Shown: positions 1-50,183 of the stretch, piece after piece | Numbering within the stretch: the first letter of the stretch is position 1 | Layout of the letters: each line of letters opens with the position of its first letter | Source: a virus | Virus record (IMG/VR): IMGVR_UViG_3300037493_005727 | Coordinates: 133,091 to 190,250 of that record | DNA: 57,160 nt | Strand: one strand, 5' to 3' | Program-made: the position numbers and the translations under genes | Notes under the pieces: model-generated | Told to the model about the DNA's origin: nothing | Seen by the model: the letters and a program-made list of their open reading frames with translations, nothing else | Databases searched by the model: none

Positions 1-1
1 T

Positions 2-31716: not shown

Positions 31717-31977
31717 CTACACCTTGGTTGTTCGTTTGAAGATGACATCCCCCCCGATCCAGACCTTGAGTTCCAGCAGGCCGTCTCGGTGGAGTCCTTC
31801 TACAGTGATGTCGTCGTGGTGGATTGAGCCCTCGGCTCTCTGCAGCACCTGGCAGCGAAACCCCCCGGAGCGGCTCCTGGGGCCCGTTCCGACTTTCGCT
31901 TTCCGCCCATCCACGCTGATGTTGAGCCAGAAGTTCCTAACGTTTCGGGGCATCGGCGGTGTCCTCCAAGTAAGCAT
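31717..31977 (-). CDS. hypothetical protein (86 aa)
   Basis: ORF. Confidence 0.4.
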   Translation of the reverse strand: MLTWRTPPMPRNVRNFWLNISVDGRKAKVGTGPRSRSGGFRCQVLQRAEGSIHHDDITVEGLHRDGLLELKVWIGGDVIFKRTTKV

Positions 31978-32272
31978 CTCCGTCCACTCGAATGTCCCCC
32001 ATCACCATGTTCGCGCCTTGGTCTACGGCGGTGCCAGTGATCTTCTGCGTCAGGGTTTGTTTCCCCGCTTTGATGGTGAGTACGCCCCCTTTCCGCATCA
32101 GCTCCTCGAAGAACGCTAGAAGCTCGTTTGGACGGTAGACCGTCGATTCGAAGAGGCACTTTCCTTTCGCGTGCTCTCCTTCCGGTTTGCCACACTGCGT
32201 ACAACCTTCGAGGTGATACCGAGAGAACGTGTACTTGAGATCCGCTCTGAACTTGTGGCCGTGTAGCTTCAT
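31937..32272 (-). CDS. C2HC zinc-motif family protein, paralogue A (111 aa)
   Basis: Motif CTQCGKPEGEHAKGKCLFE. It is full-length similar to the adjacent paralogue B. Confidence 0.55.
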   Translation of the reverse strand: MKLHGHKFRADLKYTFSRYHLEGCTQCGKPEGEHAKGKCLFESTVYRPNELLAFFEELMRKGGVLTIKAGKQTLTQKITGTAVDQGANMVMGDIRVDGDAYLEDTADAPKR

Positions 32273-32643
32273 CCGCCCACCCCTACGAGTTCGAGCTCTA
32301 CCGCCGTTCCCGTTGGTCCGCCGTAGACAGGGCTGAGTCTCCCCAGTTCGTAGTACGCCGGGTCGTTGGACAAGGTGTACTGATACGACGACGCTTTGAC
32401 CAAGTAGGACACCGAAGCTCCTCCAATGATCTCCAAGGTCAACTTCCCGTCCTTCGGGAGCTTCCCTTGGAACAACGCCGCCAGGATACGCTCTAGTGGC
32501 GCAGCGTCGAGCTTGGTGAAGTCGAACATACAGTCCTCCCCCATGTGCGCGATGATCGGCTTCTTACACTTTCTGCAGACCCCGCTTCCGAGGCTGCTTC
32601 TTCCGTACTCCTCGATGGTGAGTCGTGCCGTCAGTCTTTGCAT
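32269..32643 (-). CDS. C2HC zinc-motif family protein, paralogue B (124 aa)
   Basis: Motif CRKCKKPIIAHMGEDCMFD. The downstream region GKLPKDGKLTLEI matches paralogue A. Confidence 0.5.
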   Translation of the reverse strand: MQRLTARLTIEEYGRSSLGSGVCRKCKKPIIAHMGEDCMFDFTKLDAAPLERILAALFQGKLPKDGKLTLEIIGGASVSYLVKASSYQYTLSNDPAYYELGRLSPVYGGPTGTAVELELVGVGG

Positions 32644-33154
32644 AGTGCGCCTTGTAGTTGGTGGGGGAGAACAAGCACTTCCCTTTCACGTGGGTATCCT
32701 TGGCGTGGCCACAGTGAATGCACTGAGTAAACCAAGCCCAGTCGATCTGCCCGCTCTCGACCGTGATGTCCGAGTGCTTCGGGTGCGCCCCCCACCAGAT
32801 TCCACGTCCCGTGACTACCAGGTAGTCGGCGTGGGCTTCCGCGTTTAGCTCGTACCCGGGACGCGGAGGGACCAGAAACAGCTCTCCGTTGGACACCTGG
32901 TCCTCCATCTGGTCGAAGGCCGCCTCACCCACGAGCTCTTCAGCCGTGCTTCGTCGGATGAACGAAGCGCTCCAGCCATGGAGCTCAAAGGATGAGATGT
33001 CCTTCAGCCTTTTCTGTACGTCGGCGAAGGTCTTCTGAAGCTTGGGCAGCAGCTTCAGGAGATCCGGAGTCATCGTCACCACCGCGAAGTCGCAGTCGGC
33101 GTTGAAGTGCTCGTTGTTACTGCTCGCGCTTAGGAGGTAGCTTTGACCTGACAT
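32564..33154 (-). CDS. hypothetical protein with a C-terminal C2HC zinc motif and a basic tail (196 aa)
   Basis: Its C-terminus is CIHCGHAKDTHVKGKCLFS. Confidence 0.55.
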   Translation of the reverse strand: MSGQSYLLSASSNNEHFNADCDFAVVTMTPDLLKLLPKLQKTFADVQKRLKDISSFELHGWSASFIRRSTAEELVGEAAFDQMEDQVSNGELFLVPPRPGYELNAEAHADYLVVTGRGIWWGAHPKHSDITVESGQIDWAWFTQCIHCGHAKDTHVKGKCLFSPTNYKAHYAKTDGTTHHRGVRKKQPRKRGLQKV

Positions 33155-33384
33155 ACGAAGTCGACCTCCCGGATCTTGGCGTCGTACTCCTCATCCTCCT
33201 CGATGTACTGCCAGACGATCCCACCTTCTCGCATGTCCGCGAAGGCCTTCATCCGGGCTTCCTGCTCGTCCTTTGCATCGACGGTCAGGACCCCCCGCAT
33301 CCACGCCTTGCCGAGAAACTCGACGTTGTACCGGTTGAACTTTGGAGCTGGAGCCGGTTTCTTTTTAGGCGTCGCTCTCTTCAT
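33130..33384 (-). CDS. hypothetical protein (84 aa)
   Basis: ORF. Confidence 0.45.
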   Translation of the reverse strand: MKRATPKKKPAPAPKFNRYNVEFLGKAWMRGVLTVDAKDEQEARMKAFADMREGGIVWQYIEEDEEYDAKIREVDFVCQVKATS

Positions 33385-33385
33385 G

Positions 33386-33589
33386 TCAGCGCTCCTTCAG
33401 GTAGTAGGCCTCGAGCCACTTTAGGCCGCACTCAGTCGCTAGAAACTCAAGCTGGGCGTCGATACCCTCGTTGTTGATCTCCGAAGCCCTGAGCGTCATG
33501 ATTTCGTGCACCTGGTCATCCAGGTCGGCGTCTTCGTATTTCGCCTTGATGGCCGCGAAAACGCGCTTCTTCTTCTCAGAGACCCGCAT
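33386..33589 (-). CDS. hypothetical protein (67 aa)
   Basis: ORF ending in an ATGA overlap. Confidence 0.45.
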   Translation of the reverse strand: MRVSEKKKRVFAAIKAKYEDADLDDQVHEIMTLRASEINNEGIDAQLEFLATECGLKWLEAYYLKER

Positions 33590-33843
33590 CAGTCACATCC
33601 TCGTTCAGCGCGGTCGGCGCAGGTGTCGCACTGGTACCCTCGAGCTCTGTCCGCGGGGGTCAGCCGGTTCTCCTCTCCGCAGTTGGGACAGGGGAGGTTC
33701 CTCGGGTTGCTGTCGGTTTCCGCCCTCAGGGCGCTTCGCCCTCCAGGATCGGCGAACTCGCTCCGGTCTTCGTCGAAGTCCTGATCGTGGGAGTCGCCGT
33801 AGTCCACGTCGTCATCTTCCTCCATCGTCCCGGGGTTCGACAT
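33589..33843 (-). CDS. acidic protein with a C-terminal zinc ribbon (84 aa)
   Basis: The ATG at 33843 has an AAGGAG RBS. Motif: CPNCGEENRL...YQCDTCADRA. Confidence 0.5.
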   Translation of the reverse strand: MSNPGTMEEDDDVDYGDSHDQDFDEDRSEFADPGGRSALRAETDSNPRNLPCPNCGEENRLTPADRARGYQCDTCADRAERGCD

Positions 33844-34018
33844 ATGGGATCTCCTTCTTCGGTTCATTCTGCTGGTTGAGCTTCTCGAGGTTCGCGTTGA
33901 GCTTCTTGAGCTCACGAACCAGTTCAGGCATCGTGTACTCGAAGAACGTCCGGCCCATGGCCGTCTGGAAGAATTGCACCTCAGCCACGGGGCCATCTCC
34001 TTGAATACTTCGCAACAT
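33812..34018 (-). CDS. hypothetical protein (about 68 aa)
   Basis: Track ORF 33812..34174 trimmed to an internal Met. The start is uncertain. Confidence 0.3.
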   Translation of the reverse strand: MLRSIQGDGPVAEVQFFQTAMGRTFFEYTMPELVRELKKLNANLEKLNQQNEPKKEIPYVEPRDDGGR

Positions 34019-34286
34019 CTCCGTCAGTGACGTCAACAGTCTCTCCTTCGTCGTTGTAGCGGCTGATGAAGAAGGGTCCACGGATGACATCCCGGATCTC
34101 CGGCACGGGCCGATTGAACGGCAAGCCGGTGAGCTTTCCCTCCTCGTTGCAGATGAGGCCGACTCCGTCCTCAAGGGTCACGTTCTCGATGTACCCTCCA
34201 ACCAGGTCTTGCATTGGTTGCAGCCCCGCTGCGATGTCCATCACCTTCGGATCTCCGCCAACAGGGAACAGCAGTACTTTGGGCAT
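33981..34286 (-). CDS. hypothetical protein (101 aa)
   Basis: ORF. Confidence 0.5.
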   Translation of the reverse strand: MPKVLLFPVGGDPKVMDIAAGLQPMQDLVGGYIENVTLEDGVGLICNEEGKLTGLPFNRPVPEIRDVIRGPFFISRYNDEGETVDVTDGDVAKYSRRWPRG

Positions 34287-34385
34287 GGCTTCTCCTTTGT
34301 TACGCGTGGACTACTTTGGGGATGTCCGGCCCGGACATCCGTCGGGAAAACCCTCGAAGCACTGGCTCGGCCAGTACAAACAGCT

Positions 34386-34769
34386 GCCTCCACTACGGAG
34401 GCGTCGATCTAAAAATCGAATCTAGTTCACGCTTGAATCACTGTGTTCTGCACGATCCAGTCCTGGAGCTCGCACCCTCGGATGAGCTCGAGGAGAACTC
34501 AGAATTTGGATGTTGCCTGGTGACTCCAATCTGATCTGATCAGATTGGCCACAGGCCATCTTAAAGATGTCTCCACTACGGAGACGCTGGTTACTCCCAG
34601 TTTGCTGATTGGCGTGTCTACTTTGTTCGGTGAGCCGCCACTGGCGGCCTGTGCTCGACTACTCGCGATTACTTTGATTCACGGTCTCCGCCAGGCGCCG
34701 GCGGACGACATCTCCGGCTCGGGCAGTTTTGGCCTAGGGCCAACAAGAAGAAGTCGCCACTACGGCGAC
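34386..34769. repeat. three-unit hairpin array with covarying 6-bp stems, an identical ACTAC loop and 183/184-bp spacing (34386-34402, 34569-34585, 34753-34769)
   Basis: The three units are GCCTCC-ACTAC-GGAGGC, GTCTCC-ACTAC-GGAGAC and GTCGCC-ACTAC-GGCGAC. Compensatory changes occur at two stem positions. They lie in a 500-bp non-coding gap. Confidence 0.6.
34526..34548. promoter_or_regulatory. perfect 11-bp inverted repeat around a central T, GATC-rich (CCAATCTGATC-T-GATCAGATTGG)
   Basis: Direct reading of the sequence. It lies between hairpin units 1 and 2 of the array. Confidence 0.5.
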
Positions 34770-34783
34770 TAGCACTCTCTAAT

Positions 34784-35062
34784 CTAATCGCGATCTGTAA
34801 AATTGTACCCCGCGAGATACGACTCACGTAGGTAGAGAACGTAGAGACTCCGAGCTTCTGCGCCAGGGACTTTCAGGGTCACGGCGAGCTCGAGGGGGGT
34901 CGCTTGCTCCCGCTCCGTCGCCCGGTGCTCGTGCCCCAACTTGACTGCCTTACCCATCATACGGGCAAAAGAGTCGAAGTCAGTTTTCGGGAGCTTCTTC
35001 GGCTTGGGCGGCATGCCCTTCTTTGTATACCAGTCGAGGCAAAAGAAACAGCGCCCGTTCAT
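34784..35062 (-). CDS. hypothetical basic protein (92 aa)
   Basis: ORF. Confidence 0.45.
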   Translation of the reverse strand: MNGRCFFCLDWYTKKGMPPKPKKLPKTDFDSFARMMGKAVKLGHEHRATEREQATPLELAVTLKVPGAEARSLYVLYLRESYLAGYNFTDRD

Positions 35063-35102
35063 GGGCGCTGCTCTTCTTCCTCGCGGTGGAGGGTTCTACC
35101 TA

Positions 35103-35345
35103 CTACGCCGCCTTCTTGTGCTTCGACAGCTTGGCGGCGGGGCTGCGGGCCTGGGTCTTCTTGGCCTTCGCCTTCTTCTTGGTGTCGGCGCCCTTGACCT
35201 CCACCGCCACCTTCTCCTGCTTGCGGGGGCCGACCGCCTTTTCACGCGTGTATTCGTACGCGTCGGAGCCGAGGGCAACGCCGAGGAGGACGCCCGCGCC
35301 AGTGGCAACAGTGACCGCCGCGGTCTTCAGGAAAGTTCCGAGCAT
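35103..35345 (-). CDS. small membrane protein with a Lys-rich tail (80 aa)
   Basis: It has an N-terminal hydrophobic helix (LKTAAVTVATGAGVLLGVALG) and then a KKKAKAKK tail. Confidence 0.5.
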   Translation of the reverse strand: MLGTFLKTAAVTVATGAGVLLGVALGSDAYEYTREKAVGPRKQEKVAVEVKGADTKKKAKAKKTQARSPAAKLSKHKKAA

Positions 35346-35540
35346 GATTGTCTCCTTCCTTGGGGGCTACCCAAGAAACCCTGAGGGAACGCAACATCAA
35401 CCATCCGGGAAGATGGCTTGCGTTTACAACCCCACGGCCAGACCCACGTCGATCCCTGTCGGGTGCGAGGTCTTCCAGTAGGTACTAACTTCATCTCATA
35501 GTCTTGTACCCGCCTTTGGGCCGTTTTTATGAACCATGGC

Positions 35541-35568
35541 TTGACAGGGGTCTTTGGGGGGCTAATAT
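35541..35568 (+). promoter_or_regulatory. sigma70-like promoter (TTGACA-16 nt-TAATAT)
   Basis: Near-consensus -35 and -10 hexamers. It is the only such element upstream of the rightward PTH2 and tRNA-like unit. Confidence 0.5.
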
Positions 35569-35638
35569 GGGGGCATGAACAGCTCAAGCCATTGACGTCC
35601 GGCCCGAAGCACCCCAGGACCCGTGGACTCACTACTGT

Positions 35639-35932
35639 GTGATCCGCAGAGACCTACCCCGCGGTACCCAAGCTGCCCAACTGATTCACGCCGCTGGCCA
35701 CTCATCGCCAGGCACGAATCTCCCCTCAGGAACCTACGCCATCGCCCTGTCCTGCCAAGATGAGGCTGAACTGCGTTCGCTCTCTGAGCGCCTGGAAGTC
35801 GCTGGCATTCCACACCACCGAATCAACGAGCCAGACGAGCCCTACAACGGGCAACTCATGGCCATCGGGCTGCCGCCCGCCTACAAGTCCACCTACCGGA
35901 GGTACATCTCGAATTTGCCTTTGATCAAATAG
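35639..35932 (+). CDS. PTH2-family peptidyl-tRNA hydrolase (97 aa, GTG start)
   Basis: IRRDLPRGTQAAQLIHAA matches the PTH2 N-terminal motif (V-R-x-D-L-x-M-G-K-G-K-x-A-A-Q-x-x-H-A-A). The C-terminal part ...SCQDEAELRSL...AGIP...INEPD...MAIGLPP parallels KAPDEE...L...GL...IxDAG...LGIGP. Confidence 0.55.
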   Translation: MIRRDLPRGTQAAQLIHAAGHSSPGTNLPSGTYAIALSCQDEAELRSLSERLEVAGIPHHRINEPDEPYNGQLMAIGLPPAYKSTYRRYISNLPLIK

Positions 35933-35993
35933 TCTTATGGGGCGAGCGGTAGTATGGCGCTTCGGGAGGTTCGACTCCTCCCCGCCCCACCAT

Positions 35994-36068
35994 GCTTCGT
36001 TACCTCAGTTGGTAGAGGGCCCAGAGTAATGACCTGGGAAGTCGGGGGTTCGAATCCCCCACGAGGCT
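35994..36068 (+). tRNA. tRNA-like gene with canonical acceptor, D and T arms but an apparent 9-nt anticodon loop (AGTAATGAC); identity unresolved
   Basis: Acceptor GCTTCGT/ACGAGGC, D arm CCTC-AGTTGGTA-GAGG and T arm GGGGG-TTCGAAT-CCCCC. The anticodon stem CCCAG/CTGGG encloses 9 nt. Confidence 0.5.
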
Positions 36069-36071
36069 CTT

Positions 36072-36145
36072 GCTCCCCTAGCTCAGTTGGTAGAGCGTCG
36101 GCTGATTTAAGCCGCGGGTCCCTGGTTCGATTCCAGGGGGGAGCG
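36072..36145 (+). tRNA. tRNA-like gene (Lys/Ile-like body) with an apparent 8-nt anticodon loop TGATTTAA; identity unresolved
   Basis: Acceptor GCTCCCC/GGGGAGC, D arm GCTC-AGTTGGTA-GAGC and T arm CCTGG-TTCGATT-CCAGG. The anticodon stem CGGC/GCCG encloses 8 nt. Confidence 0.5.
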
Positions 36146-36829
36146 CTACTTCTTGAGAAGATGGGCTGCGATCAGCCCCGCCACAGACCCGAGGATTCCT
36201 GGGGCGGCTTTACGCAGGACCTCGCCTTTGTTGACGAAGCTCTGGTCAAGGGCCTTCGTCCCAAAGCCCCCAGGCGGCTTGAGCTTGAGCGCCGTTGTTT
36301 CAGTGGGCTTCAGAGCGGGACCTTTGGCGGCCAAGAACTGCTGCTTGTTGGCTTCGTCGAGTCCGTGGAGATCCCACAGCGCTTTCGAGGCAGGGCCGTG
36401 CGCGACACCAGGCCGCCGCATGTGCAGAAGGGCGTCGAACTGGTCCGGGTCTTGATTGACCAGGGTGTCGTAGCGGTCTGAGACGTGCCCCGGAGGAACA
36501 CCGCCAAGGCCCATCCGAAGATCTGCGTCGTAGTGCTGCATTCCGAGATGCCGAGACAGCTCCGACGCCATCTCGCTCTTCCCCGTCCTCGGCAGGCCGC
36601 CGATCCCAATGCGCGCCGTCGCGGGGTCTAAGTGTTTCAACAGGGGCGCGATTTTAGCCGCGTCCGAGATGATCTGTGGATGGATCTTCGCACCTCCGCC
36701 CTGTTGGAGCAGTTCGTTACGCAGGTCCCTGTCCAGTAGCATCTGAAGAGCGATTCCCCCGAGACCTCCAGCAACGGCTCCGAGTCCGTAGTGAAAGGCG
36801 GCAGCGGTCTTTCCTGCGAAATAGAACAT
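36146..36829 (-). CDS. P-loop NTPase/kinase-like protein (227 aa) with hydrophobic termini
   Basis: Walker A motif GIGGLPRTGKSE. It has a GAGGTG RBS. Its stop abuts the 3' end of the second tRNA-like gene, and it lies downstream of the leftward tRNA cluster. Confidence 0.55.
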   Translation of the reverse strand: MFYFAGKTAAAFHYGLGAVAGGLGGIALQMLLDRDLRNELLQQGGGAKIHPQIISDAAKIAPLLKHLDPATARIGIGGLPRTGKSEMASELSRHLGMQHYDADLRMGLGGVPPGHVSDRYDTLVNQDPDQFDALLHMRRPGVAHGPASKALWDLHGLDEANKQQFLAAKGPALKPTETTALKLKPPGGFGTKALDQSFVNKGEVLRKAAPGILGSVAGLIAAHLLKK

Positions 36830-36907
36830 GACACCTCAAGTTTAGGCCAGAGGCTAAAAATGAGCTGGGCATACTCGCCGTTGCTCTTCTCTTCTTCTTA
36901 TACCGCA

Positions 36908-36978
36908 CTGGGGCACGTGGACTCGAACCACGATTCTCAGAGTCAAAGTCTGATGTCCTGCCATTGGACGATGCCCCA
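36908..36978 (-). tRNA. tRNA-Gln (anticodon UUG)
   Basis: Cloverleaf: acceptor TGGGGCA/TGCCCCA with U1-A72, anticodon arm TCAGA-CTTTGAC-TCTGA and T loop TTCGAGT. Confidence 0.7.
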
Positions 36979-37060
36979 TCGGAACGGGGGGACTCGAACC
37001 CCCACGCCTTGCGGCACTAGATCCTAAGTCTAGCGCGGCTACCAGTTACGCCACGTTCCG
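36979..37060 (-). tRNA. tRNA-Leu (anticodon UAG), class II with a long variable arm
   Basis: Acceptor CGGAACG/CGTTCCG, anticodon arm CTAGA-CTTAGGA-TCTAG and variable arm TGCCGCAAGGCGT. It resembles E. coli tRNA-Leu architecture. Confidence 0.7.
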
Positions 37061-37064
37061 CTTG

Positions 37065-37137
<73 letters not shown>

Positions 37138-37186
37138 AAAAAAACGAACACCGGACCCTGGGAGGGGGGAGAGGATCCGGTGTTCG
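37138..37186 (-). terminator. rho-independent terminator (11-bp stem CGAACACCGGA/TCCGGTGTTCG plus T7 run on the bottom strand)
   Basis: Inverted repeat with a 20-nt loop followed by a run of A on the top strand. It lies between gene 37242..37505 and the tRNA cluster. Confidence 0.6.
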
Positions 37187-37241
37187 TAGGCGCATGCAGC
37201 GGGGGAGGGGGGAAAACCGCTGCGGCGCCCTTCTTTTGAGA

Positions 37242-37505
37242 CTAGTACTGGCTCTCATCTCCTGGACGAAGAATCGTGATGATCTCCTTCGTGTTCTTGT
37301 CGTACGCCACGCGGACCAGAATGTCATGAATCATCAGCTCGAACAAGGTAACACGGAGCGACTGTTTGCGAATGGGTTTCGCACGCCCCTGTTGGATGTC
37401 CAGCACGGCCTGCCGAAGCGTTTCGTCTCCTACTGGAATTCCAAACCGCTCGACCATGCGGCGCTTAGCGTGCTTTCGCTCGGCCGCTGCTTTTCCTCTG
37501 GGCAT
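37242..37505 (-). CDS. hypothetical basic protein (87 aa)
   Basis: ORF. Confidence 0.5.
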   Translation of the reverse strand: MPRGKAAAERKHAKRRMVERFGIPVGDETLRQAVLDIQQGRAKPIRKQSLRVTLFELMIHDILVRVAYDKNTKEIITILRPGDESQY

Positions 37506-37508
37506 GGG

Positions 37509-37661: not shown

Positions 37662-37685
37662 GTGTAGCTCCTTTGTGAGCGTTTG

Positions 37686-37757: not shown

Positions 37758-37775
37758 TCTTTCTTCGACCCTTCT

Positions 37776-39910: not shown

Positions 39911-40190
39911 CGTGCACCTCCTCGAGGTGCCCCTGCAGATCCCACAGCTGCTCCTTGGCGCGCTCGATGGCTTGCGCGGCATAGTAGAGTTGCTGCTTCT
40001 TGTACAAGTCAGGATCGAACGTCTCGATGAGCTCGATGACGATGAACTTCGCCAGCGTGTCCCCGGACCCGTTCTTCTTCAGCTTCCCCGCCTTCGTGTA
40101 GTAGTTGCTGAGGTAGCCGTCGTCGTACGCCTCATTCGCCAGATCCAGCAACTCCTTCTGGGTGAAGCTTTTTCCCCTCTTCGTCTTCAT
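39900..40190 (-). CDS. hypothetical acidic protein (96 aa)
   Basis: The ATG at 40190 has a GGGAGGA RBS. The track ORF N-terminus is out-of-frame shadow of the upstream gene. Confidence 0.45.
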   Translation of the reverse strand: MKTKRGKSFTQKELLDLANEAYDDGYLSNYYTKAGKLKKNGSGDTLAKFIVIELIETFDPDLYKKQQLYYAAQAIERAKEQLWDLQGHLEEVHDAL

Positions 40191-40566
40191 ACCAATCCTC
40201 CCCGCAGAGTGAACAGATGATGTGATACTTGTCTTTCTCCGGAGCGAGCCTGCGCTCCAAGAGGCCCATTCCTTCGTCGTTGACGTGTTCGCAGCAGGAA
40301 GCCGCCACGTCGTGGATCTTTCCGATCTCCTGCTCGTTGTCGTCTGCTTTCTTGTGAAGGCGCCCCACCAGCTGACGATCCAGCGTTTCCAATCGACCCA
40401 AGAGGGCCTCTCGCTCCAAAGACGTAATCTCCGCTGGGAACTTCGGCTCGAAGCGGGAAGCCTGGAACAGGCACTTCCGCTCTTTGCCGGCGTGCTCTCG
40501 GCGCCACTGCCCACAATTTCTGCACGGGAAGTAGCGTTCCGGGGTCAGCTTCGGAGGCTTCGCCAT
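40132..40566 (-). CDS. C2HC zinc-motif family protein with a second Cys cluster (144 aa)
   Basis: N-terminal CRNCGQWRREHAGKERKCLFQ and C-terminal HIICSLCGEDW. Confidence 0.5.
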   Translation of the reverse strand: MAKPPKLTPERYFPCRNCGQWRREHAGKERKCLFQASRFEPKFPAEITSLEREALLGRLETLDRQLVGRLHKKADDNEQEIGKIHDVAASCCEHVNDEGMGLLERRLAPEKDKYHIICSLCGEDWYEDEEGKKLHPEGVAGSGE

Positions 40567-41794: not shown

Positions 41795-42694
41795 TTAGGG
41801 TTTCTGGGACTGCGAGAGGGACGTCTGATCAGGGGACAAGAGCGCCTGCACGCAGGCGTTCGCTTCTACGACCTTGAGATACTCCTCTGCCAACGCAGGA
41901 TTGTTCTGCGTTCGATCTGGGTGGTAAAGCCTGGCGAGACGACGAAACTGCGTCTTGATGTTCGCGCGAACCTTCGGCGTGAACTCCCCGTTCTTCGGAG
42001 GGTCCACGTTGAGGACACGAAGAGCCGCATAGAGCCTCTTCGTTCTCGAAGCGTCCGAAAGCTTCTCCGGATCTGCCACTCGAGCGCGTGCGATGATGCT
42101 GCGCCACGTTTCAGTCAACGCCCGAAGATCCGCGCGACCAACGGCGCGGATGTTATAGGCGGCGAATTCTGGGACGCCGACCAGCATCTGGTCGAACAAG
42201 CGTTCCACGGCTGCGAAGAACTCAGTGGACTGCCCTCTGGCAGACAAAGGTTCTTCTGGCTCCTTTTCCGGTGTCCTTGCCCTCGTTTTGCTCGTAGGAG
42301 CATTTTCGGAGGGGCGCTTCTTGTCCAGCGTTCCCGCCAGATACGCCTGGATAGTCGCTTCTACTTTCTCGGGCGTTGGTTGCTGTTTGTCGTCCCGCGA
42401 CCGAGCGATGATGATTCCGCTCGACCGGAGCGTAACCTTCTTAGCTTCGAGCGCCGCCCAGATAGGCTCCGCCGCAGCGCCCACCCGGTGCAGGATCGCC
42501 CGATCCATGATGTGTCGGGGTCCTGCGTTCTCAGAGCCGGGGGGCAACTGAGCGGTGATCCAGTAGCCGCAGTAGTTTTTGCGGGCTCCTGGAGTGTCTG
42601 GAGTGAACGCGCGCATCTCGTGTTCAACCTGAGCGCGCTCCTTTTCACTGGTACTGGCAACCCACGCCAGAACCAGCTCTGCGATCGATCTCAT
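41795..42694 (-). CDS. J-domain (DnaJ-like) protein (299 aa)
   Basis: Its C-terminus IKTQFRRLARLYHPDRTQNNPALAEEYLKVVEANA matches the J-domain helix II/III with the HPD motif. Confidence 0.55.
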   Translation of the reverse strand: MRSIAELVLAWVASTSEKERAQVEHEMRAFTPDTPGARKNYCGYWITAQLPPGSENAGPRHIMDRAILHRVGAAAEPIWAALEAKKVTLRSSGIIIARSRDDKQQPTPEKVEATIQAYLAGTLDKKRPSENAPTSKTRARTPEKEPEEPLSARGQSTEFFAAVERLFDQMLVGVPEFAAYNIRAVGRADLRALTETWRSIIARARVADPEKLSDASRTKRLYAALRVLNVDPPKNGEFTPKVRANIKTQFRRLARLYHPDRTQNNPALAEEYLKVVEANACVQALLSPDQTSLSQSQKP

Positions 42695-44489: not shown

Positions 44490-44547
44490 GACTCTTCCTT
44501 CCTGCCCGAAGGCAGTTTGTTGGTGGTGATCTACTTCGTTGGTTGCT

Positions 44548-45000
44548 TCAGTGAGACAGGCCAGAACTGCGCTCTTGCTGATCGAGAGCGCCACCCTGAT
44601 ACAGCCGGAACGGCGGGACGGGAGCCCTGAACCATCCCTTGGTCGGTTCGAACCGAAGGAAGTCCAGCAGCACGCGCCCGTAAGACCGCAGGGCCACTCG
44701 CCCGTAGGTTTCGTCGAATCCGTTGGGACCGTTGATGTCCCGGTACAGCGCCTTGTACAGCCCTTCACGCGCCCCGGTGGCCATGATCGCCGCCCGGATC
44801 TGGTTGTTGTACATCGCGTGATTCTTGTGCAGCCACGTCTCCAACTCCCACGGCTGGGAGCAGGCGCAATGGCCCGGGATGGCCACGCCCATCTGGACCA
44901 GGTGGTGCAGCAGGTCGGTCCACTTCTTCACAGGCACCTTCGCCTGAAGCGCCGCAGTGAACTCGGCGATCCAGCCCAACTCCTCTGGGGTGAAGAGCAT
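44548..45000 (-). CDS. hypothetical protein (150 aa)
   Basis: The ATG lies 29 nt downstream of motif copy 3. Confidence 0.5.
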   Translation of the reverse strand: MLFTPEELGWIAEFTAALQAKVPVKKWTDLLHHLVQMGVAIPGHCACSQPWELETWLHKNHAMYNNQIRAAIMATGAREGLYKALYRDINGPNGFDETYGRVALRSYGRVLLDFLRFEPTKGWFRAPVPPFRLYQGGALDQQERSSGLSH

Positions 45001-45028
45001 CAGTGTCTCCTTCGAGCCGGGTAAGAAA

Positions 45029-45064
45029 GCTTTGGCTCAAGTCCTGATACCAAAAAACAGCCCC
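45029..45064 (-). promoter_or_regulatory. copy 3 of the promoter-like motif (TTTTTTGGTATCAGGACTTGAGCCAAAGC)
   Basis: It is followed to the right by the nested hairpin GCCCC-AA-CCTAC-GAAG-GTAGG-A-GGGGGC with flanking T/A runs. Confidence 0.4.
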
Positions 45065-45102
45065 AACCTACGAAGGTAGGAGGGGGCTTTTCGGCGGGCC
45101 GA

Positions 45103-45627
45103 TTACGAGGGCAACTGGTACCGGGACGTTTCAGGGTCCCAGAGCAGCAGCTCGTGATCCCACCAGGGCATCATCCCCTTGGTGCCCTCGTCGAGGGCGG
45201 CGGCCATGCGGTCCACCCTGACCTGGGGGACCCCGTGGGTGTTGCGCGGACCGGCGATGGCCGGGTCGATGCGGAGGGTCATGATGACCACCTCCGCCCC
45301 GAACGCCTGCCCGACCGCCACGTAGGGGGCGATCTCAGCCACCGACGTGGACGTGTTGTCCACCACGATGACCGGCTCGGGGACGGGGTTACGGACCCCG
45401 GAGATCTTGGCCAGCTCGCGCTGGGCATACCCGTCCTGCAGGTGCTCGATGACCGAGAGCAGGCACGCCCCGTGAGCCGCCGGGAGCTTGGCGGGGTTGA
45501 AGACGTACTTCTCCCCTTCCATCATCCCGTCGTCCGCCGACGCGATGAGGTCAGCCTTGGGGAGCTCCTTCCGGGCGAAGGTGCTCTTCCCGCTGCCGGG
45601 GATGCCTCGAAGAATGATAAGGCGCAT
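45103..45627 (-). CDS. polynucleotide-kinase-like P-loop kinase (T4 Pnk kinase-domain-like, 174 aa)
   Basis: MRLIILRGIPGSGKSTFARKE plus a downstream VVDNTSTS segment. It parallels the T4 Pnk kinase domain (IILTIGCPGSGKSTWARE...ISDTNL). No phosphatase domain is present. Confidence 0.5.
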   Translation of the reverse strand: MRLIILRGIPGSGKSTFARKELPKADLIASADDGMMEGEKYVFNPAKLPAAHGACLLSVIEHLQDGYAQRELAKISGVRNPVPEPVIVVDNTSTSVAEIAPYVAVGQAFGAEVVIMTLRIDPAIAGPRNTHGVPQVRVDRMAAALDEGTKGMMPWWDHELLLWDPETSRYQLPS

Positions 45628-45711
45628 GGGTGGTCCTTTCTCGGCTTTCACCGAAGTGAGACGCAGTGCCAATAACTAGCCACCTCCGGCTCCCATGCAG
45701 GAGCTTGCGTC

Positions 45712-45746
45712 GGGTTCAAGTACTAATACCCTAAAAATGATCAGTT
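45712..45746 (-). promoter_or_regulatory. copy 4 of the promoter-like motif (AACTGATCATTTTTAGGGTATTAGTACTTGAACCC)
   Basis: Near-identical to copies 5 and 6. Confidence 0.4.
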
Positions 45747-45752
45747 TTAGGG

Positions 45753-46124
45753 TTAGGCCGCCCCGACGTGTCCGAGGTACTCCTCGCACTTCTTCAATTC
45801 TCTCTCTTCCTCCGGGGTGAGCTCACCCTTCTGTTTCTTCTCTAGAAACAAGCGGTATCTCCTTTCAACGCTGACGTAGAGGTCCATCTTGAAGATCGCT
45901 GCGTCTGCCTCGTTGGCGGTCTTCCCAAGCAGCCGCTTCTCCAGCCCGTACAGAAGGTATGGTCTCATCCGCTCCGTTTGCATGACGGTCAGTTCGAAGA
46001 CTTCATCCCCGTACCCCTCGAGAGTCACGTACACCGTGCTGAGGTCACGCTCATCCGCAACGATGTTGACGGTCTTGACACAAGCGTCTGGAGCAACGGC
46101 CGTTGCTGTTCTATGCTCTGCCAT
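45753..46124 (-). CDS. hypothetical protein (123 aa)
   Basis: Strong AGGAAGGAG RBS. Confidence 0.5.
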   Translation of the reverse strand: MAEHRTATAVAPDACVKTVNIVADERDLSTVYVTLEGYGDEVFELTVMQTERMRPYLLYGLEKRLLGKTANEADAAIFKMDLYVSVERRYRLFLEKKQKGELTPEEERELKKCEEYLGHVGAA

Positions 46125-46151
46125 TCAGCGTCTCCTTCCTGGTGAGAGTTC

Positions 46152-46997
46152 ATGTTCTACCGCCTCGGACAGCATCATGCTCTCGCCGCATTAGGCCTCG
46201 AAAAGCTCGCGGCGATTCTACGCCCAGGGATTGGGGGTCCCGCGGCGGAGATTCAACGGCACGTCGACACCGGTAACTTCGCTGAAGCTTCCAGGCTGGC
46301 TCGGCAACCAGGGGCTTTCGTGGATCAGCAGCACCTCAGCCCTTTTGACCTCGGACACCACATCCGGCATCTCGGGGCGGGGGTCGAAGGCAGCGCGGAA
46401 CTGATGGTCCACCCCCAGCACGGCGTCAACGCCACGAAGATCTACGACCCTCGGGGGATCACTAAGCGTCGTGGGGTTGAACTCAAAGGGGAGGCGTTCA
46501 ACCGTATCCAGAACTTCGAACCCAGGTCTACCAGAGATCGTGAGCTACAGCAGCATCTCGTACGCCTCCTTGGGCAGACAACGCCTCCCAGGCCGACAGA
46601 CGCCGGGATCCCGACGGTTCTCCCAGCCCACCACTTCGAATTCGTGCCTGGGCATCACGGGGATCATGTTCTACCCGCTGACCAGGAAGCCCGTTTCACG
46701 ACGCTGCAGGGGCAAATGCGCGACTTCATCCCCAGGGCTACCGGCGGTATGACGGTCCACGACACCAACAAGCGGGACAACTGGATCATCGGTCCTGATG
46801 GCCGCCCCACTCTGGTCGATTTCTCCCTTACCAGCGCTCCGGGCGCTTCTTGGGGGGACATCCAGCAGAAGGCGCTCCCCGGGGCGGACCCTAAAACAAT
46901 CTTCGCCCGCCACAGGGAAGGGTTTGATTCCGCCGAACCGTCCGACGACCCACGCTACGCCGAACCCCCGCCGGTGAGGGCGGGGGCCCGACGTTAG
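46152..46997 (+). CDS. protein-kinase-like protein (atypical or eukaryotic-like kinase fold candidate, 281 aa), rightward gene inside the leftward block
   Basis: It is the only long ORF over this 850-bp stretch and its codon third positions are GC-biased like the rest of the genome. VHDTNKRDNWII resembles the HRDLKPEN catalytic loop, and TLVDFS resembles DFG. Confidence 0.45.
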   Translation: MFYRLGQHHALAALGLEKLAAILRPGIGGPAAEIQRHVDTGNFAEASRLARQPGAFVDQQHLSPFDLGHHIRHLGAGVEGSAELMVHPQHGVNATKIYDPRGITKRRGVELKGEAFNRIQNFEPRSTRDRELQQHLVRLLGQTTPPRPTDAGIPTVLPAHHFEFVPGHHGDHVLPADQEARFTTLQGQMRDFIPRATGGMTVHDTNKRDNWIIGPDGRPTLVDFSLTSAPGASWGDIQQKALPGADPKTIFARHREGFDSAEPSDDPRYAEPPPVRAGARR

Positions 46998-47398
46998 CTT
47001 TCCAGCGTTGAAACCCAGCTGCGCAGCTTTTCTGGGGTCAGCTCGTTGAAGGGGACACGGGTGACATCGAACCCCGCGGCCGCCAGGATCGTCACCATCT
47101 TCATGGCTCCGGGGGTGTTCATGGAGTGCACGAGAACGGGGACTCCTTGATCGAGCTTCTGCGCAACGGCCTTTGCCACGACGCCCCCGTTGGTGAAGGC
47201 GCCGTCAGCCGTGACCCCCTGCTTGTACAGGTCGTAGTCCAACAGGACCCCGTGGTAGGTGTCCGCCTCGTCCTTCTTGAGGATGGCCAACGCAGCGCCG
47301 CCTGAACGCGCCCAGACCACCCGCACCTCTTTGGGGAGGTGCGCCGTGAAGAAGGCATGCCGGTCAGAGTCATCCTCGACCAGCAGGAGGCGGATCAT
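46994..47398 (-). CDS. stand-alone response-regulator receiver (REC/CheY-like) domain protein (134 aa)
   Basis: MIRLLLVEDD...VLLDYDLYK...VLVHSMNTPG...K pattern. It has a GGAGAGGAGGAAGC RBS. Confidence 0.5.
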   Translation of the reverse strand: MIRLLLVEDDSDRHAFFTAHLPKEVRVVWARSGGAALAILKKDEADTYHGVLLDYDLYKQGVTADGAFTNGGVVAKAVAQKLDQGVPVLVHSMNTPGAMKMVTILAAAGFDVTRVPFNELTPEKLRSWVSTLES

Positions 47399-47727
47399 GC
47401 TTCCTCCTCTCCAAAGTCGATCTCGAGCATGATCTTCTGTTCGATCCGCTTTTGGGACCACCCGGCCTTGGCGAGGTGGCAGACAGCCAACTCCAGCGCC
47501 ATCTGGAACTTCCAGCGCCCCAGCGAGGTGTCTTCCGCCTGCCCAAGCTTATTGGCGTAGCGGAGGATGGCGACCCCCGATACCAGGTCCTGCTCCTGGC
47601 GGTCCGGCGGTCCAGCGAGGGCCCTGGCTCGCCCAAAGGCCACCTTGTAGGCCTCCGGTCCAACCACGAACAGCTCCAGCCACTGGCCGTAGAGAAACCC
47701 GGCCAACCAACCTAGCGCGTAGCGCAT
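47395..47727 (-). CDS. hypothetical protein (110 aa)
   Basis: The ATG lies 30 nt downstream of motif copy 5. Its stop overlaps the REC start (ATGA). Confidence 0.5.
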   Translation of the reverse strand: MRYALGWLAGFLYGQWLELFVVGPEAYKVAFGRARALAGPPDRQEQDLVSGVAILRYANKLGQAEDTSLGRWKFQMALELAVCHLAKAGWSQKRIEQKIMLEIDFGEEEA

Positions 47728-47756
47728 AGTTCATCCTCTCTGAGCCGTAGGTACGA

Positions 47757-47796
47757 TCTTTGGCTCAAGGTCTAATACCCCTAAAAAAGATCACTT
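47757..47796 (-). promoter_or_regulatory. copy 5 of the promoter-like motif (AAGTGATCTTTTTTAGGGGTATTAGACCTTGAGCCAAAGA)
   Basis: It is preceded in gene sense by the hairpin GGGGGCCCCCC-AAAA-GGGGGTCCCC (47810-47836). Confidence 0.45.
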
Positions 47797-47851
47797 TACT
47801 GATGGGTAGCGGGGACCCCCTTTTGGGGGGCCCCCGGCGAACCAGGGTGAC

Positions 47852-48064
47852 CTACCGCTTGGCCTTCTTCTTGGCCTTCTTCTTGGACCTGGCGGGCTTC
47901 CCGAAAAGGGACACGACGAAGCGCTCGTCCGCGGCCTTCTCCTCCTCCGAAGGGTCGAACCAGCCCCACGAATCCATCAACCGCACGCCACCCACCGCGC
48001 CCACCAGCGCGCCGCCAGCCGAAACAGCGGCCACCGCGGCGCTCTTAAGAATCGTTCCGATCAT
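47852..48064 (-). CDS. small membrane protein with a Lys-rich C-terminal tail (70 aa)
   Basis: The ATG at 48064 has a GAAAGGA RBS. It has a hydrophobic helix (ILKSAAVAAVSAGGALVGAVGGV) and then KKKAKKKAKR. Confidence 0.45.
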   Translation of the reverse strand: MIGTILKSAAVAAVSAGGALVGAVGGVRLMDSWGWFDPSEEEKAADERFVVSLFGKPARSKKKAKKKAKR

Positions 48065-48236
48065 GTTTTTGTCCTTTCTCGGCCTGGACCGAGGGTTCAA
48101 CGGGTTGGACTTCTTTGACACTGAGGATCCGCACGACCTCGCCACCCGGCGGAGTCAGCGGTTCCTCAGATCCCATCACTACGGTGGTCAGACCCGCCGC
48201 GTTGCGGACGGCCCAGCCAATGATTGGTCTTTTCAT
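48045..48236 (-). CDS. hypothetical protein (63 aa)
   Basis: The ORF has a GGGAG RBS. Confidence 0.4.
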   Translation of the reverse strand: MKRPIIGWAVRNAAGLTTVVMGSEEPLTPPGGEVVRILSVKEVQPVEPSVQAEKGQKHDRNDS

Positions 48237-48247
48237 AGGCTCCCAGG

Positions 48248-48553
48248 TTACGGGGAAACGCGGATCGCGCTCTTGCCCGTCAGAACGTTCTTCAACTTCG
48301 CGCCGGGGGCGTTGATGGTCCAGGGGTAGACCCCCTCACCGTGGCCGCGGCTCGTCACCGAGACCTTGTTCCCGTCCTCGTCGCGGAAGTACAAGACGTT
48401 GCCCTGGGCCATCCGCGTCGCCTTCTTCTCCAGGGCCTTGAAGCTCGCCTTGGTACCGCCTTGGGCGATCCACAGCGCCAAGGCGTCGTCGATCCAGGTA
48501 CCGCCGGTACGGCGGAGGCGGGACCAGCCAACCATCTCTAAGAGGTCGAACAT
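48248..48553 (-). CDS. hypothetical protein (101 aa)
   Basis: The ATG at 48553 lies about 35 nt downstream of motif copy 6. Track ORF 48248..48619 was trimmed. Confidence 0.45.
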   Translation of the reverse strand: MFDLLEMVGWSRLRRTGGTWIDDALALWIAQGGTKASFKALEKKATRMAQGNVLYFRDEDGNKVSVTSRGHGEGVYPWTINAPGAKLKNVLTGKSAIRVSP

Positions 48554-48585
48554 TGGTGTATCTTTCTCCCTGCTTCCAGGGTGTA

Positions 48586-48623
48586 GGGGTTCAAAGTCTA
48601 ATACCCTAAAAAAGATCACTTTT
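48586..48623 (-). promoter_or_regulatory. copy 6 of the promoter-like motif (AAGTGATCTTTTTTAGGGTATTAGACTTTGAACCCC)
   Basis: Near-identical to copy 5. It is preceded in gene sense by the hairpin around 48628-48655. Confidence 0.45.
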
Positions 48624-48666
48624 ATGACCCCCAGGGACCCCCTTTCGGGGGCCCCCGGAACCGCCT

Positions 48667-49449
48667 TTACTTGGTAAAGTGGCGAACGGTGCCTTTGAGG
48701 CGAATGGGAGCGACCACCCCCCAGCCCTTCTTGAGCAGTTCATTGGAGTAGACGGGGCTGCTCACGCACGAAATGGTGACGTGGTGCAGCTGCCCCAGAC
48801 TCGGGGCGTTGTAGGGCTCAGGCAGCGTGACCTTTACCGCCTGCCCCTTGTCGTCGGAGGCCTCCCCGACGACCTCGAACTCCACGACCTTCTCGAGGAG
48901 TGGCTCAAAAGCCTTGATCAGTTCAGGCCCAGGCTTGAACGCCAAGGTCACGTGATGCCCAAAGACCTTCGGGTGGATGGGCGGGAAGGCCTTGAGCAGG
49001 GCGTCCTTGGAAGGCTCGTCCAAGAAGATCGCCGTGTAGACGGGCTTCGGCTGAACTGGGATTCTGAGCAGGGCCAGCGCCTTCTCTGGCACCCCGTCGC
49101 AGCTGGGGTGGCAGTCGTGCTTCTCCAGGGCGGCAATGGCCGCCATGATTCGTTCGTCCGAAGCTCTCCAGCCAGCTCGGGAGATCCGGTCATTCTCCTC
49201 GGCCTTGGTCACCTGCTCCGCGAAATACTTCACCTTCTCATCGGCCAACTGCTGGCCCAGTTGCTCGTCTTCGAGCTCCTTGATGCGCTTGTGCAAGCGC
49301 GCCTTGGTCTCCATGAAGATCGTTTCATGGTCTCGGATGAGCTCCGCCTGGTCGCGGATGGTCTGTTTCATCTCCCGCTCCCGCATCTTCAGCACGATGA
49401 CGTCACCCATCGCTTGTCCAAGCCCGATAGCAGGATCTCCTTCACTCAT
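48667..49449 (-). CDS. 2H phosphoesterase superfamily protein (LigT/CPDase-like) with an N-terminal coiled-coil extension (260 aa)
   Basis: It has two H-x-T-x motifs, HHVTLAF and LHHVTIS, in the C-terminal approximately 130 aa. The N-terminal approximately 130 aa are Glu/Lys/Arg-rich helical. Confidence 0.55.
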   Translation of the reverse strand: MSEGDPAIGLGQAMGDVIVLKMREREMKQTIRDQAELIRDHETIFMETKARLHKRIKELEDEQLGQQLADEKVKYFAEQVTKAEENDRISRAGWRASDERIMAAIAALEKHDCHPSCDGVPEKALALLRIPVQPKPVYTAIFLDEPSKDALLKAFPPIHPKVFGHHVTLAFKPGPELIKAFEPLLEKVVEFEVVGEASDDKGQAVKVTLPEPYNAPSLGQLHHVTISCVSSPVYSNELLKKGWGVVAPIRLKGTVRHFTK

Positions 49450-49642
49450 TTTTACGCATCTCCGCGTAGCGGGCGGTCGCCAGCCACTTCATGTAGTGGG
49501 ACTTCTCCAACGTGTCGATGATCTGAAGCAGTTCTTGGGCGAAGGGGTGGCCTACCCGGATAACGCCCACCGTCTTGTTGAGGAGGTTGATGGCCTGAGA
49601 CAGGTACTTCTCCGCGTCTTCGTCTAGGTGGTTTAGGGGCAT
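49442..49642 (-). CDS. hypothetical protein (66 aa), first gene of the leftward block
   Basis: Track ORF 49442..49927 trimmed to the ATG at 49642. It overlaps the downstream start by 8 nt. Confidence 0.45.
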   Translation of the reverse strand: MPLNHLDEDAEKYLSQAINLLNKTVGVIRVGHPFAQELLQIIDTLEKSHYMKWLATARYAEMRKNE

Positions 49643-49644
49643 TA

Positions 49645-49670
49645 CTCCTGATACCCTAATAGAGTCCTGG
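49645..49670 (-). promoter_or_regulatory. copy 7 (partial) of the promoter-like motif (CTATTAGGGTATCAGGAG) in the divergent region between the leftward and rightward blocks
   Basis: It has the GGTATCAG core but lacks the TTGAGCC half. The ATG lies only 8 nt downstream. Confidence 0.3.
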
Positions 49671-49702
49671 CTTTCGGTCGAAAAAACAGGTAGGCTACGT
49701 CC

Positions 49703-49957
49703 ATGCCCGACATCCAACCCGGCCTGGTTCACACCGTTGACCCGTCCCGCTGTGGCAACTGTAAGCACCCTCGAGCGGCTCACGTTGAGGGCATCTGCTT
49801 GTTTGACTCCACGACCTTCCGTGAGGAGAAAGCAGAGGATCACATGGACTGCGTCTGTGAGGTCGTCACCGAAACGGCGCCACCGGAGAGGGTAAGGGCT
49901 CCTACGCCACAAAGGGTCCTCACCCACTACTATCCACCCATGGGCGTCATTGTCTGA
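49703..49957 (+). CDS. C2HC zinc-motif family protein (84 aa)
   Basis: Motif CGNCKHPRAAHVEGICLFD. Confidence 0.5.
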   Translation: MPDIQPGLVHTVDPSRCGNCKHPRAAHVEGICLFDSTTFREEKAEDHMDCVCEVVTETAPPERVRAPTPQRVLTHYYPPMGVIV

Positions 49958-50183
49958 CCGTGCCTACAAGATCCGCATGCCGGTGATGCAGCAGGTCTGC
50001 CTGAACTGTCACAGGGACCGCGTCCAACATGTAGATGGAAAGTGCTTGTTTGAGGCCTCGGAGTTCAAGCCTGGCGGGGTCAACGTGACCAAGAAAACGG
50101 TCACGGCCCCGGTAGTCTGTGGCCGCTGCGGCGGGAGCAAGAAGGACCCCGAGCACGAAGGTACTTGCGGCGCCTGTTCCTGA
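49950..50183 (+). CDS. C2HC zinc-motif family protein with a second C-terminal CxxC...CGAC cluster (77 aa; TTG start or ATG at 49977)
   Basis: Motifs CLNCHRDRVQHVDGKCLFE and CGRCGGSKKDPEHEGTCGACS. Confidence 0.5.
   Translation: MSDRAYKIRMPVMQQVCLNCHRDRVQHVDGKCLFEASEFKPGGVNVTKKTVTAPVVCGRCGGSKKDPEHEGTCGACS

Follow-up and report, generated by a model that had tools for sequence, protein, structure and literature searches.

How does one short cysteine- and histidine-containing motif come to recur in six small genes of a phage genome, and what is it for? The question is raised by a 57,160-bp stretch of viral DNA, the whole of which was analyzed here as the window, corresponding to positions 133,091 to 190,250 of the IMG/VR virus record IMGVR_UViG_3300037493_005727. 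An initial annotation, made from the letters of the sequence, had described a family of small paralogues sharing the signature CxxC-x4-6-H-x2-3-G-x-C-[LM]-F-[EDQS]. The module built around this signature defines a large, previously unannotated family, seen in one kind of phage. The six open reading frames (ORFs) that had been named are all present with one motif apiece, and are listed here as w1 to w6 together with the module and its score against a hidden Markov model (HMM) of the family:

w1, 31937-32272, minus strand, motif CTQCGKPEGEHAKGKCLFE; module at 32135..32203, minus strand, CTQCGKPEGEHAKGKCLFESTVY, 51 bits.
w2, 32269-32643, minus strand, motif CRKCKKPIIAHMGEDCMFD; module at 32509..32577, minus strand, CRKCKKPIIAHMGEDCMFDFTKL, the most divergent copy, ~33-34 bits (21 bits with an independent profile).
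w3, 32564-33154, minus strand, motif CIHCGHAKDTHVKGKCLFS; module at 32654..32722, minus strand, CIHCGHAKDTHVKGKCLFSPTNY, 54 bits.
w4, 40132-40566, minus strand, motif CRNCGQWRREHAGKERKCLFQ; module at 40450..40524, minus strand, CRNCGQWRREHAGKERKCLFQASRF, 54 bits.
w5, 49703-49957, plus strand, motif CGNCKHPRAAHVEGICLFD; module at 49751..49819, plus strand, CGNCKHPRAAHVEGICLFDSTTF, 56 bits.
w6, 49950-50183, plus strand, motif CLNCHRDRVQHVDGKCLFE; module at 49998..50066, plus strand, CLNCHRDRVQHVDGKCLFEASEF, 58 bits.

The window (60% G+C) was scanned in six frames with the regular expression C..C.{4,8}H.{2,6}C[LMIV]F, and 100 shuffled versions served as a control. Exactly six matches were found in the window and none in the 100 shuffles. 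A six-frame scan for the bare tetrapeptide C[LM]F[EDQS] also returned the same six places only. Among all window ORFs, the family HMM retrieved these six at about 34-58 bits, with 4 bits for the best other ORF. An independent profile, derived from 133 members each less than 50% identical to the window copies, scored the six at 21-55 bits versus 4 bits for the next ORF.

In the alignment of the six copies, the residues C, C, H, C, and F are invariant. The order of CxxC, H, and C thus stands as first described, whereas the spacing had to be corrected: the Cys-His spacer is always 6 residues long (not 4-6), the His is followed by the last Cys after 4 residues (6 in w4), and the Gly of the proposed G-x-C element is out of register in w2 and w4. 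Conservation also runs past the original motif, as [LM]-F-x-x-[ST]-x-[FYL] in the six copies. Four of the module genes lie on the minus strand and two on the plus strand, and the module is N-terminal in all proteins except w3, where it is C-terminal. Beyond the module, relatedness was detected only between w1 and w2 (BLASTP E 3e-4, also recovered by clustering), as had been noted before. At the DNA level, identity among the copies amounts to what the shared residues impose, and third codon positions vary freely. We therefore regard the module as a feature of the proteins; the comparison ruled out a DNA repeat as its source.

Several lines of evidence identify the six ORFs as bona fide protein genes under purifying selection. 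All of them show the excess of G+C at third codon positions that is typical of local coding frames (0.69-0.77; w5 0.69). Five (w1 to w5) were already recorded as called proteins (P0001, P0005, P0020, P0187, and P0188), with P0001 identical to w5 and P0020 identical to w4. Genes w1 to w4 sit on a 190,250-bp contig of the Joint Genome Institute (JGI), and those carrying a name are called 'hypothetical protein'. With full-length protein alignments as queries, orthologues of w2 to w6 were retrieved from metagenomes (P0002-P0041); those of w1 came from related loci (L010, L016, L026, L055, and L059). The w2 orthologues P0016-P0023 are each 124 amino acids (aa) long, with C, C, H, and C intact. Orthologues of w4 comprise P0025-P0041, and those of w5 were found at loci L020, L024, L033, L039, L043, L046, and L049. 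For w6, proteins P0002, P0003, and P0021 as well as loci L020, L022, L032, L039, L043, L046, and L049 keep both Cys clusters of this protein. In every full-length orthologue, i.e. P0001-P0041 and those of the related loci, C, C, H, C, and [LM]F are unchanged. The ratio of nonsynonymous to synonymous substitution rates (dN/dS) against the nearest relatives was 0.11 for w1 (against L010), 0.14 for w2, 0.23 for w3, and ~0.15 for w5, and it is for these four genes that purifying selection was measured; synonymous sites of w6 were saturated. Promoter and terminator scans around the module genes gave nothing above shuffles.

To gain an overview of the family, a module profile (18 sequences, 38 positions) was searched with HMMER against 1.84 billion protein cluster representatives. 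This search yielded 511 proteins at E ≤ 1e-3, including 14 at E ≤ 1e-10. The description given here rests on the best 150 of the 511 matches, of which 145 were new; all 145 contain the motif. The resulting logo reads C-[RKA]-[NH]-C-[GK]-x-P-x-x-[ED]-H-[VA]-[DE]-G-K-C-L-F-[ED]-[APS]-T-x-[FY]-x-P. Over 152 modules, N/H was present in 97%, K in 77%, L in 95%, F in 98%, and T in 84%, and the His-Cys loop comprised four residues in 122 modules, five in 26, and six in 4. The proteins are 48-234 aa long (median 100). With the independent profile, the pattern of the new family, C-x-[NH]-C-x6-H-x4-6-C-[LM]-[FY]-x2-[TS]-x-[FYW], was recovered in all six window proteins, with departures at the [NH] position in w1 (Gln) and w2 (Lys) and at the final aromatic position in w2 (Leu).

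According to the initial annotation, a profile that retrieved only the six copies, together with loss of the Cys/His positions in homologues, would have pointed to a chance match. The profile instead retrieved 511 further proteins, and Cys and His are invariant in the orthologues and in the 145 new members among the best 150. From its shortness, the motif might be suspected to be accidental, to reflect low complexity, or to be the translation of a conserved DNA element. The lack of shuffle matches, the gap of 30-50 bits to the next ORF, the 511 database members, the free third codon positions between copies, and purifying selection together refute such an explanation, to which we assign practically no probability.

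The signature had not been recognized as a named family in the initial annotation, and it also lies outside any family in the resources consulted here. The six proteins had no family match in scans of Pfam, PHROGs, NCBIfam, and PADLOC, and for the 145 relatives no family in Pfam or PHROGs covered the module. Against sequences of the PDB, the module profile returned only CxxC noise at E values above 0.8. A tblastn search with the module consensus against 50,697 phage genomes gave nothing even at E ≤ 10. When the module DNA pattern was searched in 185,579 prokaryotic species genomes, one contig matched, with a chance expectation of about 0.5; this match was dismissed as accidental, since a stop codon lies 10 codons upstream in frame and the conserved extension is missing. 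In IMG/VR, the DNA-pattern scans identified five contigs only, of 167,875, 187,070, 188,569, 194,266, and 36,259 bp. A literature search on the GKCLF signature and on phage zinc knuckles found nothing relevant.

What kind of module is it? Its reading as a putative metal-binding mini-domain is well supported, because four invariant ligands stand in the classical knuckle order and are accompanied by conserved hydrophobic residues that could build the sole core available to so small a unit. Zinc is the expected metal for a Cys2-His-Cys set, and zinc as ligand and a knuckle fold are accordingly what the residue pattern would predict. An AlphaFold2 model of w3, calculated with 41 aligned sequences, reached a mean predicted local distance difference test score (pLDDT) of 85.4 and a predicted template modelling score of 0.75. 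The model consists of an alpha/beta N-domain of ~140 residues followed by the module, whose 10-residue blocks have mean pLDDT values of about 79-85. In the model, a short strand ends in the C-x2-C, a helix of three residues stands before the His, and short bridges come after; this predicted secondary structure would be as expected around a zinc knuckle.

By ligand pattern, the nearest known kinds are the CCHC zinc knuckle and the second Nanos finger. The zf-CCHC knuckle (PF00098), found in the retroviral nucleocapsid, Lin28, and Air1/2, has the same ligand types in the same order, and this order of Cys, Cys, His, and Cys is invariant in the six proteins, the full-length orthologues, and the 145 distant members. 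Shared features further include a C-x2-C turn that is often followed by Gly or Lys, an identical H-x4-C, a very small size, and repeated or portable use. In contrast to the C-x2-C-x4-H-x4-C of the knuckle, the module has C-x2-C-x6-H-x4(5,6)-C in 152 of 152 cases. It is not basic, carries a conserved C-terminal L-F-[ED]-x-T-x-[FY] extension that is missing from knuckles, and occurs in phage proteins of unassigned function, unlike the knuckle with its RNA-binding proteins. The PF00098 HMM gave no match at E ≤ 1 among the six proteins and none at E ≤ 0.01 among the 145 family members. The second CCHC finger of Nanos is C-x2-C-x7-H-x4-C and belongs to a fixed pair in a eukaryotic RNA-binding protein. 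Its spacing is nearly identical (x7 versus x6 in the module, then H-x4-C), but in the Pfam scan, to which the comparison extended, there was no zf-nanos match, and sequence similarity is confined to the ligands. On spacing and on HMM, the module falls outside both kinds.

Phage zinc-ribbon proteins (Lar, Ogr/Delta, Com, and DksA/TraR-like) are likewise small, Cys-rich, and encoded in early or accessory regions. Some module proteins (w6 and w4) have a ribbon-like extra cluster, and weak Pfam ribbon matches occurred in single members. Zinc ribbons, however, consist of two C-x2-C knuckles about 10-25 residues apart, whereas the module has one knuckle plus His and Cys within 18 residues. Its third and fourth ligands are His and Cys, 4-6 residues apart, and no ribbon HMM covers it. 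As for HNH or His-Cys-box homing nucleases, there was no match in Pfam, PHROGs, PADLOC, or PDB sequences, and in the module, at ~28 aa, the four ligands are not joined by a conserved pair of catalytic His/Asn residues. The module is neither a zinc ribbon nor a nuclease of these types.

The likeness to CCHC knuckles raises the question of whether the module is a nucleic-acid-binding knuckle of the retroviral nucleocapsid or Lin28 type, in which case the family would consist of small DNA- or RNA-binding regulators. The C-C-H-C order, the Gly/Lys directly after the second Cys, and H-x4-C all resemble CCHC knuckles; Lys or Arg is conserved at several module positions; w1, w3, and w6 are basic; and several members add zinc-ribbon-like clusters. 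This explanation nevertheless seems unlikely to us. No zf-CCHC or other nucleic-acid-binding Pfam family matched even at E ≤ 1, the first spacer has six residues and not four, and the L-F-E-x-T-x-F after the last Cys is hydrophobic or acidic at its conserved positions, unlike the basic/aromatic pattern used for base stacking. Moreover, module net charge was 0.1 ± 1.8, and the median isoelectric point (pI) of the family was 6.3, with 41% of the proteins acidic (pI below 6). A mean charge near zero and a mixed pI do not point to nucleic-acid binding in particular.

Alternatively, the Cys/His set could form a redox-active CxxC, an iron (rubredoxin-like) centre, or a haem c attachment site, since CxxC motifs serve all three roles. 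The CLNCH of w6 is formally a CxxCH, and w6 gave a weak Cytochrome_C7 match (E 0.01, below the curated cut-off). We consider such functions highly improbable: CxxCH is found in only ~11% of modules and, among the six, in w6 only, while the invariant C, C, H at +7, and C at +12 are typical of tetrahedral Zn. In addition, w1 to w6 lack the signal peptides needed for haem c maturation, and no thioredoxin fold context is present.

The initial annotation had also noted an expansion across the phage genome, and this turned out to be larger in relatives, which carry 12-13 or more copies. At least 12 distinct copies were present in the fetched parts of a 189-kb contig and at least six in a 187-kb contig. 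In the 194-kb contig IMGVR_UViG_3300045051_000909 (locus L063), positions 1-14472 contain 13 module genes on one strand within 14.5 kb. In most of the 13 encoded proteins, the N-terminal part is a domain with the recurrent motif 'VGDxV', which by eye could be SH3-like, and the module forms the very C-terminus. Inside this array, a 484-aa AAA ATPase (PF00004; PAN/ARC-like) is encoded at 4297-5751, with an N-terminal region that by eye looks like a coiled coil plus an OB domain. An association of such an ATPase with the module was dismissed, as it occurs in L063 only and was found neither in the other fetched loci nor in the window. Short metagenome contigs with 3-5 module genes per 1-3 kb are common.

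Within the family, the module is placed N-terminally, centrally, or C-terminally, and at least eight proteins contain two or three modules. BLAST clustering of 289 members with the module masked gave 165 groups, 141 of them singletons. With 165 mutually unrelated partner groups, the module has been joined to a great many unrelated sequences. In a scan of ten multi-domain members, the only partner domain at the Pfam cut-off was DUF1281_C (an Api92-like, ferredoxin-like domain), which is joined to the module in L019:2846-3478 (minus strand).

In a few distant members, the module is accompanied by short stretches that copy motifs characteristic of essential phage enzymes. Proteins P0045 and P0156 include a peptide of ~20-24 aa (TGRLSSxxPNxQNI) that resembles DNA polymerase I (PolA) and that Pfam and NCBIfam align to positions ~620-643 of this enzyme. 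The order in P0045 is QIHDEII (likewise PolA-like), module, module, TGRLSSSQPNLANIP, and FKQEFLGKW, and P0156 (L014:239-607, minus strand) is a complete ORF that ends with TGRLSSREPNVQNI. An FKQEYLGxW/F peptide also lies beside the module in P0066, P0076 (L058:861-1124), and P0153. Neither the window nor any of its six module proteins contains the PolA motifs (TGRLSSxxPNLQNIP), and the six proteins also lack the FKQEYLGxW/F peptide. Homology of the module itself with PolA was rejected: in tblastn searches, P0156 matched phage PolA via the TGRLSS..PNxQN peptide only, and the apparent 86% coverage of the Thermus phage P23-45 polymerase included no Cys/His. A terminase origin of FKQEYLGxW was not confirmed, as there was neither a PDB terminase match nor an informative phage match, and no terminase ORF lies next to L058:861.

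Such chimeras, as well as the many copies scattered over both strands, could be expected if the module genes were small selfish or mobile units akin to homing elements, spreading within and between phage genomes; the DNA of a conserved motif is a classical homing target, and the PolA-like or 'FKQEYLGxW' peptides stand beside the module in P0045, P0156, P0066, P0076, and P0153. On the other hand, these proteins of 50-200 aa have no nuclease domain or motif and no match to an HNH, GIY-YIG, LAGLIDADG, or His-Cys-box family. DNA-level repeats were not found at the borders of the copies, and neither of the two loci examined (L014 and L058) has a polymerase or terminase gene next to its chimeric ORF. 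Synteny of w3-w2-w1 and of w5-w6 extends to diverged relatives with synonymous sites near or at saturation, which shows that these genes were not recently mobile. Overall, a mobile origin appears very unlikely; it is the polymerase- and terminase-like peptides that leave it, like a decoy role, a small probability.

We consider it probable that the module is a structural zinc module that serves as a modular unit of recognition or scaffolding, with most weight on protein-protein contacts. According to this explanation, the C-x2-C pair, the His, and the last Cys would bind one Zn(II) in a Cys2-His-Cys site like that of retroviral knuckles, except for two extra residues in the first spacer, and the invariant Leu-Phe and the downstream aromatic residue would pack against the metal site. 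The outcome would be a tiny, autonomously folding, zinc-stapled unit of ~27-30 residues. Its duplication and joining to many unrelated N- or C-terminal regions would have produced a lineage-specific multigene family, in which small non-structural phage proteins would share the module as a transferable element for folding and docking and would owe their specificity to the variable parts. A docking unit is favored over a nucleic-acid knuckle or an enzyme by the diversity of partners, the placement at either end, the arrays, and the restriction to phages, as well as by the neutral charge with mixed pI and the presence of conserved cassettes beside bursts. No enzymatic motif was detected, and some cassettes are fixed in position under purifying selection next to lineage-specific bursts.

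Several points weigh against this explanation. The module of w4 was modeled by AlphaFold2 with a pLDDT of only 57-69 (72 for w4 overall), and the searches found no partner, ligand, or structural homologue. Proteins w1, w3, and w6 have a pI of 8.3-8.8, and a neutral mean charge would be compatible with sequence-specific nucleic-acid binding by single members. The PolA-like and FKQEYLGxW peptides beside the module in the few distant members are unaccounted for. The case for a docking or scaffold role is one from architecture, and the window covers 57 kb of a genome of ~190 kb. As to the initial annotation, its view of the module as modular, probably metal-binding, and expanded is upheld, whereas the suggested role in nucleic-acid or protein recognition is not established.

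A more speculative extension, which we regard as doubtful, would make the module the common docking handle of a family of phage adaptors whose variable parts seize different host or phage targets. In this extension the zinc module would plug into one shared hub, for which an AAA+ unfoldase/protease or the host transcription machinery are conceivable, rather improbable candidates, and the PolA- and 'FKQEYLGxW'-like peptides might, at a similarly long shot, be target or decoy peptides. If true, the family would be for phages what multigene families of the F-box/BTB type are for large eukaryotic viruses. Lineage-specific families of this sort, such as the multigene families of African swine fever virus and the ankyrin/F-box-like or BTB families of poxviruses and giant viruses, combine a small module with variable parts. 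The analogy would extend to tandem and dispersed arrays, many copies, and one small module with otherwise unrelated sequence. The comparison would differ in that those viruses are eukaryotic and the host hubs of their modules are known, whereas the present module appears to be new.

If confirmed, the module would represent a new small zinc-binding domain family beyond the copies of Pfam, PHROGs, NCBIfam, PADLOC, and PDB sequences that were searched. The family is a marker of a clade of phages from freshwater sediment and groundwater, with genomes of ~170-195 kb, in which it has been amplified to at least a dozen genes per genome. Where a single small module has expanded in combination with many different sequences, this usually marks the virus-host interface; the family is therefore a starting set for finding the targets of uncultivated phages, made up of easily expressed proteins of 30-200 aa. 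With its 28 residues, the module may also be of use as a minimal metal-stapled scaffold. We describe it as an uncharacterized new C2HC domain family with a phage multigene expansion; it involves no new principle.

The six genes differ in what accompanies the module. In w1 (111 aa), the module is near the N-terminus (residues 24-41) and is followed by a C-terminal region related to that of w2, which is 124 aa long and combines an N-terminal module with a beta-rich C-terminal region. Protein w3 (196 aa) consists of the N-domain, whose fold is unmatched, the module (residues 145-167), and a basic tail that varies. Over 80 nt (32564-32643 of the window), the 3′-terminal part of w3 is read in another frame as the beginning of w2; these nucleotides specify both the tail of w3 and the first C-x2-C of w2. 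A comparable overlap of 77 nt was seen at the related locus L041, and some w3 orthologues end directly after the module. In w4 (144 aa), the N-terminal module with the 6-residue His-Cys loop is followed by one long helix of 42 residues (49-90) and then by a beta region, which is C-terminal and contains a second conserved Cys/His cluster, GC.H...H..C.LC. Protein w5 (84 aa) comprises an N-terminal module, then DHMDCVC. In w6 (77 aa), the module is joined by a second, C4-type cluster, CGRCGG-x10-CGAC. Translation of w6 may start at the ATG at 49977 (MPVMQQV; 68 aa), as in several orthologues. Owing to their second conserved Cys/His clusters, w4 and w6 may bind two metals apiece.

In five relatives (L020, L024, L033, L043, and L046), a third gene of 160-182 aa lies between the w5 and w6 orthologues. 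This gene, which is absent from the window, encodes a degenerate module followed by a full one. At L001:4875-5027, a single 50-aa gene resembles the N-terminus of w5 fused to a w6-like motif and tail.

The window is laid out as a plus-strand block, a minus-strand block of small genes with a tRNA cluster, and another plus-strand block. The first plus block contains a head-protease-like protein and a 931-aa ORF (18417-21212). The last one, a rightward block whose first gene is w5, continues with w6, a Peptidase_M15_4 gene, and a gene for a Laminin_G_3 protein. The label 'lysis-proximal' given to w5 and w6 in the initial annotation is appropriate insofar as both lie directly upstream of the Peptidase_M15_4 gene, and not further. 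In a megablast comparison of the region with 50,697 phage records, no close relative was found; the sole distant protein matches were to large phages of about 180-500 kb and to mycobacteriophages. The gene orders w3-w2-w1 and w5-(x)-w6 are kept in the IMG/VR contigs with the module and in many short metagenome contigs. Given this common gene order, the window is part of a ~190-kb phage clade: it represents ~30% of the genome of an uncultivated tailed phage of ~190 kb that belongs to a distinct clade. The metagenome matches came mostly from JGI samples, in addition to contigs with the name tag 'Hain-H14'.

Most of the remaining ORFs of the window could not be assigned to a family. Near the w1-w3 array, two further Cys-rich ORFs were noted on the minus strand: (i) an 84-aa ORF at 33589-33843 with CPNC...CDTC, and (ii) a 68-aa ORF at 30791-30997 with CSC-x6-C-x6-CTC. 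Logan contig L002 has gene calls for the two ORFs, which the module HMM does not match. Other minus-strand genes encode (i) a metallophosphoesterase (30036-30776); (ii) a DUF3846 protein (33981-34286); (iii) a protein with a C-terminal DnaJ (J) domain (41795-42694); and (iv) a P-loop ATPase/kinase-like protein (45103-45672). Two doubtful ARAGORN calls were obtained at 35994-36146 (plus strand), namely Ile(aat) and one with an odd anticodon loop. The tRNA cluster itself, at 36908-37137 on the minus strand, consists of Gln(ttg), Leu(tag), and Thr(tgt) in tandem.

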